DNA of 64,000 bases from Dehalococcoidia bacterium (GTDB taxonomy: Bacteria > Chloroflexota > Dehalococcoidia > SHYB01): assembly GCA_965219875.1 (NCBI GenBank), contig CBDCOW010000003.1, positions 1,165,892 to 1,229,891 of the forward strand, in the 5' to 3' direction. A model generated the notes under the pieces. That model was not told the DNA's origin. It saw nothing but the letters and a program-made list of their open reading frames with translations, and ran no database searches. The translations under genes and the position numbers were made by a program. The first letter of the stretch is position 1, and each line of letters opens with the position of its first letter. Shown here one piece after another: positions 27,837 through 32,724 of the stretch.

Positions 27837-28832
27837 TTATGCTCCTAGTCCAAGATCATGTTGCCCGGCTTTAAGCGCGACCATACGGAAAATACTCGGG
27901 GGCACGTCCTTGAAGACCTCACAGGGGATGCGAATGCCTGGACCGGCTTCCACGCTACGCTGGCCGGCGCGAGGCGCATAGCCTGAGCAGAGGCCAAGTG
28001 CCCTAGCAAGCAAGGCTGGAAGTGGCGTTGCTAGCGGAACAAGTACTTCCCTCTTCGCGGGATCGTAGTGCAGGTTTCGTATTGAACATGCAGACAAGAT
28101 TGCGTACCTGGCCCAGTCGGGCTCCAGCTCTGCAAATTGGCCGTCGCGCCAGAGGCGATACCTCCAGATAGTGGTGGCGGGATCCTGGTATCTGCTTAGC
28201 CTCGTCCCGGGAGGCGTTTCCCCATCTGCCTGGAACCTGAGGCTCCGGACATTGAAGTCCTCGCGTTGCCAGTTCAGGTCTTCATCTTCAGACCAGGAGA
28301 GGTCCTGGCAGTATTCGTCCAGCGATACGGAGACGTGTGCCATGATTCTTGCAGGCGGCTGGTGCAGGTAAGGTATCCCCATCCTCTTTGCGGTGGCGCG
28401 GAGGCGCTCATCGCTATCCGCCTTGACCTCGACGCGTGCTGGCGCGTAGGGACTCAAGGAGATCTGTGGTTGCGCAGCGGTCGCTACACCCTCTGCTCTT
28501 GCCGCTTTTCGCAAGTTGACTACGGTGCTGGGAGATCTAGCCCCACAAAGCACGGCCCTGCGTATCCCGAAACCAGGAAGAACTGCCAACGCTGGCGGCG
28601 CTACGGAGATGTTGATCCCCTGGGCTTCGAATCTCACATCAACGTGACCTAGGGAACTCAGCAGGCGAAGCGCTCGCCACCGGTAGTAGAATGCAGCTTC
28701 CTGCTCCTCTCGATTCGACATGACAACATGCCTGCGATGAACTTCATCGAAGCACCTCTTGAAGGTTGCCCAGCTGGTCTCCCTCCATGCGGAAAGCGAG
28801 TAGAGAAGGATGTCGCCACCGTCAAACGCCAC
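27837..28832 (-). CDS. druG: Hypothetical protein in Druantia II position (DruG-like)
   Basis: GTG 28832 after GGGAGG overlaps the upstream stop, and its stop abuts the druE ATG. The symbol rests on size and position. Confidence 0.6.
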   Translation of the reverse strand: MAFDGGDILLYSLSAWRETSWATFKRCFDEVHRRHVVMSNREEQEAAFYYRWRALRLLSSLGHVDVRFEAQGINISVAPPALAVLPGFGIRRAVLCGARSPSTVVNLRKAARAEGVATAAQPQISLSPYAPARVEVKADSDERLRATAKRMGIPYLHQPPARIMAHVSVSLDEYCQDLSWSEDEDLNWQREDFNVRSLRFQADGETPPGTRLSRYQDPATTIWRYRLWRDGQFAELEPDWARYAILSACSIRNLHYDPAKREVLVPLATPLPALLARALGLCSGYAPRAGQRSVEAGPGIRIPCEVFKDVPPSIFRMVALKAGQHDLGLGA

Positions 28833-30885
28833 GGGCAACCTCCCGGTACTCAGCCCATAGCTCCCGCAATGTGGGCAGTGCTGGTGGCGTGATGCGCCTG
28901 CGCCAGTACCAGATGAGCTTTTTCCAGGTGCGCACCTCACCGGGGGTTCCAGCAACTCCTGGAAACGGCGAGGCGCCATCGAGACTCTCACGCAGGAAAA
29001 TTGCCTGCCCCTTCCGGCGCTTGAGCATCTTGATCGCCCAGACCGGTCTCCACGTAGAAGGGAACTCGCCGTGAGGCCACTCGACCACTTGTCCTGGCAC
29101 AGGTCCTACAAGAGAGCACCTTGTGTTCCCTAGCTCGGCCTTCATGTCCTCCAGCAGCTGGGCCGTAGAGGCTGGATGCACAGGTAGCTCACCCAGAACG
29201 TGGGCACCGGCGACCGGCGGGACGTCGTTACCTGTGGAGGAGGAAGGCGGGACCGCTTCATCGAGATTTCCCGCAGGCTCCAAGGACGACAGGCTAAAGT
29301 CACCCGTCAGGAATAAGGAGTGACTTGCCACGATATCGGTACCGCTCTTGGCCTCAAGGGTAATCCTGGACTCTGGTGGAAGACCCTCCGGCAGGACGAA
29401 AGCGCCTCCTGCGGAGCGAGCACTCATAGGCACACCACTACAGTACAGACCCGCGTCCGGTGGGCCTCCTTCGAGTGCGACGCCAGGAGGGGCGAAGTTG
29501 AAGAAGTTGCTGCCCCTGCTGCTTCGAATTCCTCCAACTAAGCGGAGGCGAGCGCTGGCAGGAAACGAGAGGAACGGGAAGTCGTGTCTAACGCTTTCGG
29601 TGCCAGTCGCCTCGGAAATGCGAGCTAGCTTCCAGCCAGACGGCAATCCGCTTGCTACTTCAAGGCTTTCGAACCCCTGGCATTCGGTTGTGATCCACTG
29701 TTCTAGCCGGGACCAGTAGACTTCCTTGTATGCGAGGTAGAATGATTGCCCTCGCGGCAGCGCGTGAACCTCAATCAGACCCGCGATTCCCTCGGATATA
29801 CCTTCGATGAACACCCGGACCGGCCGGCCAGGCAGTCGCAACTGCAAACCAGCTTGTCCAGTCTTCAACGCTACTCCCCGGCTCCAGTCCAGGCGGGAGG
29901 CATCGAAGACTTCTCCTGTCTCCCAGGTCGACAAGGGTAGAGACCACCCGTCCAGGTACTCCCCCGCAAGGAACTTGCCAGGTATCCCAGGGATCTCTAA
30001 GTGGAGTCCATCTTCAGGGAATTCTCGCTTGAGCCTGCAGCGGACGGACGCTGTGGCCGCTCTCGCAACCATGTCCAGGTCAATGCCTATCCGGAGCCCT
30101 GCAGTTGCGAGCCTAGCTGGCCTTCCACCCTGGCCAACGCCGAGTATCTCCCCATCCCATTCAGCAAGCTCGCCGGCGACAACATCCAGGATAGCCCTGT
30201 AGAGGTCGGCGTCGTTCTGGCTCTCAAGCTGGCGGATCGTTCTCGGCCTCAGGAGTTCCTTTGATACGGGGCCACGTAGTGCCCTGGCAAGCTCGTCGGC
30301 GGGTGGTGTGGAGGTGGGGTCGAGGTTCGCCTCGTAGAAGACTCGAGGCAATGCCAGTCGCTCCTGTTCCGTCAGCAGCGACTGGGCTAGGGGGTACCCA
30401 ATGTGAACGTGCCCACCGATGGTGCGCGCTTCAAATAGACCCAGCTCGCCCGCCTTATCAAGTCCAGACCAGGTCTCCAGGTCATCCCAGAGTTCCTTCA
30501 TCCTGTGGAACGAGGGAAACATGCCATCTCCAGGATCTCCCAGGAGATCTCGCAAGCGCGGGTAATAGGCATGTGGTTCAAAGTCCCCATCCGTGCCGCC
30601 AGCTAGAACGAAGAGACCGAGATACGCGATGTACGGGGGAAAGTCGAGCCCTCTGGCCCTCCAGTCCTGGCACGCCTGGAGGGCACGCTGGCAAATTCCC
30701 TGGCGAGTCGTCCAGGAGGGTCCTTCCTGCACCGCCTCAATGAATGTACCTGCAATTGGATCAAGCTCTGTCTCTAGATCAGAAATGAGCTTGCTGTTGA
30801 CATACAGGTGGACGCTGCGTCCAGCCATGTCTGGATTGAAGAAATGCTCCGCGATCGCATTATTCCAGCGAAGGTACTGGTTCAT
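28822..30885 (-). CDS. druF: 687-aa hypothetical protein in Druantia II position (DruF-like)
   Basis: MNQYLRWNNAIAEHFF... N-terminus and ATGA overlap with the glycosylase stop. The symbol rests on size and position. Confidence 0.6.
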   Translation of the reverse strand: MNQYLRWNNAIAEHFFNPDMAGRSVHLYVNSKLISDLETELDPIAGTFIEAVQEGPSWTTRQGICQRALQACQDWRARGLDFPPYIAYLGLFVLAGGTDGDFEPHAYYPRLRDLLGDPGDGMFPSFHRMKELWDDLETWSGLDKAGELGLFEARTIGGHVHIGYPLAQSLLTEQERLALPRVFYEANLDPTSTPPADELARALRGPVSKELLRPRTIRQLESQNDADLYRAILDVVAGELAEWDGEILGVGQGGRPARLATAGLRIGIDLDMVARAATASVRCRLKREFPEDGLHLEIPGIPGKFLAGEYLDGWSLPLSTWETGEVFDASRLDWSRGVALKTGQAGLQLRLPGRPVRVFIEGISEGIAGLIEVHALPRGQSFYLAYKEVYWSRLEQWITTECQGFESLEVASGLPSGWKLARISEATGTESVRHDFPFLSFPASARLRLVGGIRSSRGSNFFNFAPPGVALEGGPPDAGLYCSGVPMSARSAGGAFVLPEGLPPESRITLEAKSGTDIVASHSLFLTGDFSLSSLEPAGNLDEAVPPSSSTGNDVPPVAGAHVLGELPVHPASTAQLLEDMKAELGNTRCSLVGPVPGQVVEWPHGEFPSTWRPVWAIKMLKRRKGQAIFLRESLDGASPFPGVAGTPGEVRTWKKLIWYWRRRITPPALPTLRELWAEYREVARGV

Positions 30886-31616: not shown

Positions 31617-32724
31617 GTTCACCTGCGGCTTCGGATTGTGAGGAATAGCCCAGTGCCCCGGAGATAGCCGCCGCGACCCCTTTGCCCAGAGGCGGGGGCA
31701 AAGCATCTGAAACGAGCTGCACCTGCTGGCTAAACGTTCCCTTCAGTTCATAGGAATGGGGAAACCCCTGTAGGCGCATGGCCTCGTAGATCGAAAGGCG
31801 CCTATGCATGTTGGGATGTACGTGGACCTCTCGGTGACCGTAGGCTACGGTGTAGCTGGGCTTGTCCCAGCTTAGGACCCTGAAGCTCCTCCCGCGGTGG
31901 TCACCCGGCTCCAACATGCCGTTGGTGAACTTCTTCGACTTTGGAACCATGGCGACGTGGTTGGGGTGATGCGGGATTTCGGCCGCATCCAGGTCCCTGC
32001 GGCAGAAGGCCGGTTCCGGCAAGCCCTCGAGTGCATCCCTGGCATTTGCGGGTTGTTTACCGCCGTCTGGAGGGTCTAGTAGGAGCCCGGGGTGTCGCTC
32101 GCGGTTAATCCCGATAACGATGACCCTCTTGCGATTCTGCGGGATCCCAAATCTCCCAGCGTTGACGACCTTCTCCCGGACACTGTAGCCGGCCCTCTTG
32201 CACAGTCTCTTGAAGTCCAGGTAGCGCCTGTGATGTCGCTTCTGGGTGAGGCCAGGTACGTTCTCGAACACGAAAAAGTCCAGCCCGAAGCGAGAGGTGA
32301 ATGCCTGGATCACATTGGCGTAGCTAACGAGAAGCTTGCGCCTGGGGTCTCGCTTTTTCTGGTGCACGTTCGAAACCGAGAACGCCTGGCAGGGTGGGCC
32401 ACCGATTATCCCGACAGGGCCTTCCTCGCCGTTGATGCTGGTCCAGAGGTCTACCAGGTCATCGGGGTTACATTCGGCTATGTCCAGGAGGGCGACGTGG
32501 GTGTCCGGCTCGTTCCAACGGTAGGTTTCGACGGCAGCCTGATCTATGTCCACAGCAAGCCCCGGCTTGAAGCCAGCCTGCTTGAATCCTAGATCGAACC
32601 CTCCAGCGCCCGAAAAGAGGCTAAGCACCGGCCAGGGCCCGGCCTCCTCCGGGTTAGAATTCCTCGCCTCTGGCTCAATTCCCATTTGCTCTCGATTGCA
32701 GTGAGATTCTTGCATACCGGCCAT
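31603..32724 (-). CDS. druM: C5-cytosine DNA methyltransferase (DruM-like)
   Basis: FSGAGG (motif I), GGPPCQ (IV), FENV (VI), QNRKR (VIII), RLQGFP (IX). The start may be ATG 32685. Confidence 0.92.
   Translation of the reverse strand: MAGMQESHCNREQMGIEPEARNSNPEEAGPWPVLSLFSGAGGFDLGFKQAGFKPGLAVDIDQAAVETYRWNEPDTHVALLDIAECNPDDLVDLWTSINGEEGPVGIIGGPPCQAFSVSNVHQKKRDPRRKLLVSYANVIQAFTSRFGLDFFVFENVPGLTQKRHHRRYLDFKRLCKRAGYSVREKVVNAGRFGIPQNRKRVIVIGINRERHPGLLLDPPDGGKQPANARDALEGLPEPAFCRRDLDAAEIPHHPNHVAMVPKSKKFTNGMLEPGDHRGRSFRVLSWDKPSYTVAYGHREVHVHPNMHRRLSIYEAMRLQGFPHSYELKGTFSQQVQLVSDALPPPLGKGVAAAISGALGYSSQSEAAGEHATG

Follow-up and report, generated by a model that had tools for sequence, protein, structure and literature searches.

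We describe a run of five intact open reading frames (ORFs), packed tightly on the minus strand at 32724..22089 of a 64,000-nucleotide (nt) stretch of the genome of a Dehalococcoidia bacterium (assembly GCA_965219875.1, contig CBDCOW010000003.1). The whole stretch is referred to as the window, and coordinates given without a prefix are positions within it. The run combines genes of the anti-phage Druantia defence systems with a C5-cytosine DNA methyltransferase and a predicted DNA glycosylase, and had been noticed in an earlier inspection of the letters made without database searches (hereafter the sequence-only reading).

The first gene (31603..32724, minus strand, as are all five) encodes a DruM-like C5-cytosine DNA methyltransferase of 373 amino acids (aa), which matched PADLOC DruM (2.6e-78), PF00145 (3.7e-53) and TIGR00675 (8.1e-45), and whose translation shows the motifs FSGAGG, PPCQ, ENV and QNRKR. 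The ATG of the second gene (30882..31616) sits 14 nt within the methylase gene, giving a 14-nt overlap. Its product, a predicted Mig-type mismatch glycosylase, contains an HhH-GPD/[4Fe-4S] domain (PF00730, 2.2e-16; the EndoIII iron-sulfur motif PF10576, 8.3e-06) and is 244 aa in length, which is also the most frequent length among its closest homologues. The third gene (28822..30885), overlapping the glycosylase gene via ATGA, encodes DruF (687 aa; PADLOC DruF4, 2.2e-168, and DruF2, 2.2e-143), for which no Pfam match was found. This is followed by the gene for the 331-aa DruL (27837..28832; PADLOC DruL4, 1.6e-58), which begins with GTG and overlaps its predecessor by 11 nt, and across a TAA-ATG junction by that for DruE (22089..27836), a YprA-family DEAD/DEAH helicase of 1915 aa that matched PADLOC DruE2 and DruE4 over its full length at E = 0, with a score of 1780 bits against the DruE2 model.

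The sequence-only reading had described an intact, tightly coupled five-gene run and all four junctions agree with that description, although its coordinates (27837-32724) cover four of the genes and omit the helicase gene at 22089-27836. It had also named the last product a DUF1998 helicase. The 1915-aa helicase is confirmed by Pfam, which gives only DEAD and Helicase_C, but DUF1998 was not matched by Pfam at E <= 0.01; a Cys-rich region is nonetheless present. The family matches of all five ORFs lie far beyond chance and there is no doubt that the genes are real.

DruF, DruL and DruE are consecutive, overlapping or abutting, in type IV order, and all three matched type IV models (DruF4, DruL4 and DruE4). 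The operon had previously been called Druantia type II-like. As regards Druantia itself, the DruM-type methylase, DruF and DruE, this was borne out by the PADLOC models; no DruG model, however, matched any of the five proteins (PADLOC, E <= 0.01), and the core is type IV-like. The 331-aa protein was rejected as a DruG candidate on this basis and on its match to DruL4. Type IV (DruE, DruF and DruL) was originally described without DruM (Payne et al. 2021, PMC8565338), and type II is reported from Proteobacteria only in the PADLOC paper (PMC8565338). With type IV the operon shares the DruF, DruL and DruE genes and their order, and it differs in the presence of a C5 methylase. With type II (DruM-DruF-DruG-DruE) it has a DruM-type methylase, DruF and DruE in common, the DruF2 and DruE2 models matching strongly, and it differs in possessing DruL as the fourth gene in place of DruG. 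Because DruG is missing, the fourth gene is DruL and a DruM-type methylase stands in front, we read the operon from its gene content as a type IV-like core headed by a DruM-type methylase, a hybrid of the published types. No mechanism is, to our knowledge, known for Druantia types II and IV. In a literature search, no glycosylase was found described in Druantia.

Related loci (76 in number) were retrieved via alignment of DruF homologues and scored by tblastn together with purpose-built hidden Markov models, that for the glycosylase being built from unfused proteins; to extend the survey, 40 of the genomes were searched in full with Pfam. The loci span numerous phyla of bacteria and archaea, with Dehalococcoidia metagenome-assembled genomes as the closest, and are numbered below with the prefix L. 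The DruF-DruL-DruE core was present in every surveyed locus that was not cut off or broken. As in the window, a C5 methylase lay beside the core in 51 of the 76 loci, placed before DruF or after DruE. The published view of type IV as methylase-free is corrected by this count, two thirds of the sampled DruF/DruL/DruE loci carrying a C5 methylase.

The survey also bears on the nature of DruL. In addition to its own model, DruL matched positions 749-998 of the 1011-aa DruF2 model (the C-terminal 250 positions), and in L053, L055 and L080-L082 a single ORF of ~940-1040 aa encodes both DruF and DruL. These two findings suggest that DruL corresponds to the C-terminal portion of long DruF proteins and can be detached from them. 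AlphaFold models of DruL (predicted local distance difference test score, pLDDT, 92.1) and DruF (pLDDT 84.6) revealed no relative in the PDB by Foldseek at E <= 0.001, with all TM-scores (template-modelling scores) below 0.2, such that fold gave no hint of mechanism, and on these models both proteins are candidates for new folds. A Cas4-like PD-(D/E)xK nuclease of 360-390 aa, DruK in PADLOC, followed DruE in ~27 of the related loci, about a third (for example L010:18614-19795, 1e-22), and was absent from the operon here and from its closest relatives.

Identity of the glycosylase

The best match of the glycosylase in the PDB was 1KEA, the thymine-DNA mismatch glycosylase Mig.MthI (2.6e-33, ~35% identity), with human and bacterial MutY (~1e-26) and endonuclease III (~1e-15) ranking below. 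Its sole PADLOC match was to PDLC03398, 'Type II nicking endonuclease' (221 positions, 1.3e-32). Vsr (PF03852) had no match in the operon. The [4Fe-4S] loop of the HhH-GPD domain, C-x6-C-x2-C-x5-C, is visible in the translation.

The possibility must be weighed that the gene encodes a housekeeping paralogue of MutY or Nth and lies beside the operon by chance, given that the strongest NCBIfam match of the protein was to the mutY model (TIGR01084, 1.8e-42). The score of this match (145.8) is, however, far below the cut-off of 286.5, and the protein also falls below the nth cut-off. Furthermore, the C-terminal 8-oxoguanine-recognition domain of MutY is missing from the 244-aa protein, and separate MutY-like and Nth-like genes are present at other places in the genome (C1:1305110-1306273 and C1:55238-56020, respectively, on contig C1).

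Residues that separate Mig from MutY have been listed (PMC2714593) and seven positions were compared. Phe27, Ala50 and Tyr126 of Mig.MthI are conserved in the window protein as F40, A64 and Y139. MutY has Leu at the first of these positions and Val at the second; at the third, E. coli MutY has Ser (PMC2714593), while human MUTYH and the genome's own MutY-like gene have Tyr. E56 and D157, the predicted catalytic residues, correspond to E42 and D144 of Mig and are Glu and Asp in MutY also. At the two remaining positions the window protein departs from Mig: R47 is replaced by Gln (Q61), as in MutY, and L187 by Tyr (Y200), where MutY has Gln. Taken in the order of the Mig numbering, human MUTYH and the genome's MutY-like gene read L, E, Q, V, Y, D and Q at the seven positions. 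The MutY pair V45/Q182 is thus replaced by Ala/Tyr in the glycosylase.

A maximum-likelihood tree united human MUTYH and the genome's MutY-like gene in a clade (support 98/95) that excludes the window protein. The latter was placed in a separate clade of methylase-linked enzymes comprising 22 rows (support 100/97). A64, Y139, E56 and D157 were kept in every shown row of this clade, as was F40 with the exception of L018 (Leu). The earlier judgement that the protein is Mig-like and not a housekeeping MutY is therefore upheld by its rank order in the PDB, its residues, its sub-cut-off mutY score and its exclusion from the MutY clade. The housekeeping explanation was rejected on the score, the residues, the tree and the separate MutY-like gene, and is effectively refuted by the survey, in which linkage of methylase and glycosylase recurs in dozens of loci; we accord it next to no probability.

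In its archaeal setting, Mig.MthI accompanies the methylase M.MthTI on the Methanothermobacter plasmid pFV1, in the context of a restriction-modification (R-M) system. Like the glycosylase studied here, it is a small HhH-GPD/[4Fe-4S] enzyme that lacks the MutY C-terminal domain and is encoded beside a C5 methylase, and five of the seven compared residues (F27, E42, A50, Y126 and D144) are common to the two proteins. The differences lie in the substitutions at R47 and L187, in the modest overall identity, and in the setting: Mig.MthI serves a classical type II R-M system, whereas the present protein is bacterial and embedded in a Druantia operon. The activity of Mig.MthI is that of a T/G and U/G glycosylase which counters deamination of 5-methylcytosine (PMC2714593).

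Linkage of the glycosylase to the methylase

Among the 51 methylase-bearing loci, the methylase was partnered by an HhH-GPD glycosylase in 30 and by Vsr in 15. No locus had both enzymes, three (L016, L024 and L079) had neither, and a further three were cut off at the methylase, such that 45 of the 48 judgeable loci possess one enzyme or the other. The repair gene always adjoined the methylase, wherever the methylase lay in relation to the core, and none of the 25 methylase-less cores had a glycosylase. The sequence-only reading had proposed a survey of the neighbourhoods of DruF homologues for HhH-GPD genes; such linkage does recur, in 30 of the 51 methylase-bearing DruF loci. Nearly all methylase-bearing loci thus carry a dedicated enzyme of predicted T:G repair, which belongs to one of two unrelated folds and is sometimes fused to the methylase.

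Such fusions, in which methylase and glycosylase form one ORF, were found in nine surveyed loci and in either domain order. Four of the fusion ORFs, representing both orders, were scanned with Pfam, which confirmed HhH-GPD and DNA_methylase in each. For one fusion, all 120 of the database relatives listed contained both domains and were annotated as methyltransferases only. An actinobacterial fused class has Lys at the HhH position of the catalytic Lys of endonuclease III. This glycosylase-methylase class is of separate origin, and the Lys marks a predicted bifunctional type. Fusion ORFs are located at L030:7481-9232, L031:11477-13330 (minus strand), L036:19017-20786 (minus strand) and L067:4428-6356. 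A different state was observed in L009 (8768-9995), where DruM is reduced to its C-terminal half and the glycosylase reads as a single frame of 246 aa; in the survey DruF, DruL and DruE of this locus were each broken into several ORFs.

The type of repair partner has changed repeatedly, at least seven changes being needed on the methylase tree. The methylases of the archaeal loci L059 and L060, whose partner is a glycosylase, nest in a 100%-supported clade of Vsr-partnered methylases. This nesting makes for what we consider, from the tree, a clear case of non-orthologous replacement of Vsr by a Mig-type glycosylase. The two enzymes also occur side by side in the genome under study: its only other C5 methylase (C5:42825-43970, on contig C5) is directly adjoined by a Vsr gene of its own (pair C5:42825-44398), which is the sole Vsr match in the genome. 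The two C5 methylases of this organism are each provided, therefore, with a private enzyme of the T:G repair type, and the folds of the two enzymes differ.

Methylase and glycosylase were also found together outside Druantia. For six close homologues, 61-77% identical to the glycosylase, the surroundings in metagenome assemblies were looked up. Five of the six (P0019, P0066, P0030, P0049 and P0105; 65-77% identity) sit in methylase-glycosylase pairs that are not followed by Druantia genes. The pairs instead precede a 650-aa GHKL ATPase (HATPase_c_3), weakly similar to a restriction enzyme model of the REBASE type, together with a PF28273 protein. GHKL ATPases have been linked to cytosine methylases and Vsr in R-M systems (Iyer et al., PMC2292703). 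The glycosylases of three such GHKL-linked loci (L001-L003) nest within the window protein's own seven-row subclade with support of 100/100. In at least two pairs, ~70 nt of the 5' end of druF remain after the glycosylase stop codon (L001:10708-10773 and L085 around 8711-8790). Because this first portion of druF persists in L001 and L085, we conclude that the pair was excised from a Druantia operon and became attached to a different effector, the druF remnant marking the recombination breakpoint of the module swap.

These observations bear upon the second of two roles that the sequence-only reading had offered for the glycosylase, namely that of a sensor or effector producing abasic sites for the helicase. 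In the form weighed here, that of a 'restriction glycosylase', the enzyme would excise bases in unmethylated, mismatched or hypermodified phage DNA, and the resulting abasic sites would be used by DruE. Base-excision restriction enzymes do exist (the R.PabI family; PMC10273834), the glycosylase gene is translationally coupled between those of the methylase and DruF, and there is no recognised nuclease in the operon, DruK being absent. As in the present case, members of the R.PabI family are DNA glycosylases with a genetic link to a methyltransferase and a setting in defence (PMC10273834), but they possess a HALFPIPE fold and attack unmethylated recognition sites, while the enzyme here is of the HhH-GPD type and the comparative data point to repair. 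Against an effector role stand the absence of the glycosylase from all 25 methylase-less cores, its interchangeability with Vsr (a mismatch-specific repair nickase), its fusion to the methylase in nine loci and the occurrence of the methylase-glycosylase pair with a non-Druantia module. In addition, both its best relatives and its active-site residues are of the mismatch repair kind. We regard an effector role as improbable.

Role of the glycosylase

The first of the two proposed roles, that of a Mig-like enzyme standing in the place of Vsr as repair partner of the methylase, is favoured by the survey, the fusions, the replacement of Vsr and the portability of the pair. The glycosylase tracks the methylase and not the core, exchanges with Vsr, is fused to the methylase and moves with it, and for these reasons we consider it most probably the T:G repair partner of the methylase, an analogue of Vsr that forms no part of the killing machinery.

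The sequence of events envisaged is as follows. The DruM-type methylase would mark the host DNA as self. 5-Methylcytosine deaminates to thymine, leaving T:G mismatches, and deamination of cytosine likewise gives U:G. We infer from homology and context that the glycosylase would excise thymine (and uracil) opposite guanine at DruM sites; base-excision repair would then restore the C:G pair and with it the methylation site. This predicted substrate and role in vivo are extrapolated from the homology, residues, linkage, fusions, Vsr interchange and portability observed above. Equivalent roles are played by Vsr for Dcm and by Mig.MthI for M.MthTI, and that a Mig-type enzyme may accompany a C5 methylase is an already known principle. 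The likeness to Dcm-Vsr, and to the Vsr enzymes of 5-methylcytosine R-M systems, lies in the same presumed task, the correction of T:G at the sites of the partner methylase, and in position, as Vsr occupies the same methylase-adjacent place in 15 related Druantia loci and beside the genome's other C5 methylase. In fold and chemistry the two are unrelated: Vsr is a PD-(D/E)xK-type nicking endonuclease and the enzyme here a base-excision glycosylase.

Sorting of the genes into a killing core on the one hand, and a module for self-marking and repair on the other, would narrow the problem of mechanism to DruF, DruL and DruE. The survey additionally yields a large clade of predicted bacterial thymine-DNA glycosylases.

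Four sets of observations weigh against the repair-partner reading or against its simplest form. First, the position equivalent to Mig L187 is Tyr across the 22-row clade, with the exception of L017 (Val), and is therefore neither the Leu of Mig nor the Gln of MutY; on this residue the substrate could differ from T:G. Second, the tree places the protein outside the MutY clade but gives no settled order among the 22-row clade, Mig, an archaeal group and MutY, such that either Mig or MutY may be the sister of this clade. Third, in the 40 genomes a Vsr or HhH-GPD gene lay within 1.5 kb of 28 of 31 Druantia-linked C5 methylases as opposed to 23 of 91 others (nominal Fisher p ~1e-10, with shared descent of the cassettes uncorrected), and the HhH-GPD partner was nearly restricted to the Druantia-linked methylases (21 versus 2). 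It is not obvious that such an enrichment would follow from a wholly generic housekeeping association. Fourth, a preprint on the YprA family reports an inactivated Vsr-like C-terminal domain in the DruE proteins of types I and II, and such a relic would allow for a closer tie of T:G recognition to Druantia.

In an alternative reading the T:G enzyme, whether Mig-type or Vsr and often fused to the methylase, would be a required working part of methylase-bearing Druantia and not a mere housekeeper. It might make or process nicks or abasic sites, at mismatches in methylation sites, for the loading of DruE; alternatively, it might keep the self-mark faithful and so prevent autoimmunity by DruF, DruL and DruE. 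The near-obligatory pairing (45 of 48 judgeable loci, and the enrichment in the 40 genomes) speaks for such a requirement, as do the repeated and independent gains of repair partners, fusions included, and the degenerate Vsr-like domain of DruE described in the preprint. Were the tight pairing mechanistic, it would offer a first functional handle on these systems, and the Vsr-like relic of DruE would follow the same logic. Against a requirement stand the same methylase-glycosylase pair accompanying an unrelated GHKL-ATPase module, the lack of the glycosylase from methylase-less cores, and the three loci (L016, L024 and L079) that have a methylase without either enzyme. The enrichment may, moreover, reflect the shared descent of mobile cassettes that bring their own repair; such cassettes may simply need a repair gene of their own. 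Finally, our profile-profile alignment of the DruE C-terminus with Vsr gave one weak local match of 19 columns, to the Vsr core PDF..FVDG.FWH, which was non-significant (E 0.24). On balance we think a required working part unlikely, albeit less so than an effector, and the role of repair partner to the methylase is retained.

Flanks of the cassette

A MerR-family helix-turn-helix (HTH) gene encoding 85 aa (32850..33107, minus strand; Pfam MerR_1, 5.1e-10) lies 125 nt upstream of the methylase gene and is a possible controller of the module. The same MerR gene precedes some of the GHKL-linked pairs: L001 has an 87%-identical copy and L085 a MerR_1 gene. A promoter-like site, TAGACG-18-TATACT, was located upstream of the MerR gene (33181..33210, minus strand). 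It is at most a weak candidate, and the promoter and terminator scan returned no excess of such sites over chance in the region (three promoter-like sites versus 4.3 expected).

Downstream of DruE lies a gene for a coiled-coil TIR-domain protein (20960..21967, minus strand), which matched PADLOC PDC-S66 (2.9e-97), ThsB (2.9e-41) and Pfam TIR_2 (2.7e-21). No homologue of this gene was found in any fetched locus, and it was rejected as a member of the operon. As a match to the stand-alone PADLOC candidate PDC-S66 it is regarded as a separate candidate defence gene outside the Druantia core.

The TIR gene, the Druantia operon and the MerR gene together form a 13-kb block that is bracketed by direct repeats of ~400 bp. 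The downstream copy (20181..20590, plus strand) and the upstream copy (33193..33600, plus strand) are ~88% identical. Within the repeat lie the 3' end of an HTH-membrane gene (18940-20268) and a strong hairpin, GAGACCGCCCTCCGAGGCGGTCTC, with an identical 9-bp stem followed by T-rich sequence. The bracketing of the block by these repeats suggests recombination at the repeat site, through which the cassette was either inserted or exchanged. A 611-aa serine recombinase is encoded just past the repeat.

The surrounding island had been described as mostly decayed. The immediate flanks do not conform to this description, as the TIR, HTH-membrane, serine recombinase and MerR genes are intact; it does apply to the interval from 35.9 to 41.9 kb. 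Here an IS110-family transposase (35945-37156) is followed by short fragments of ThiF (38713-39261) and JAB (39268-39975) and by a recombinase zinc-ribbon fragment (41075-41872), all of them perhaps left over from a further defence or mobile module.

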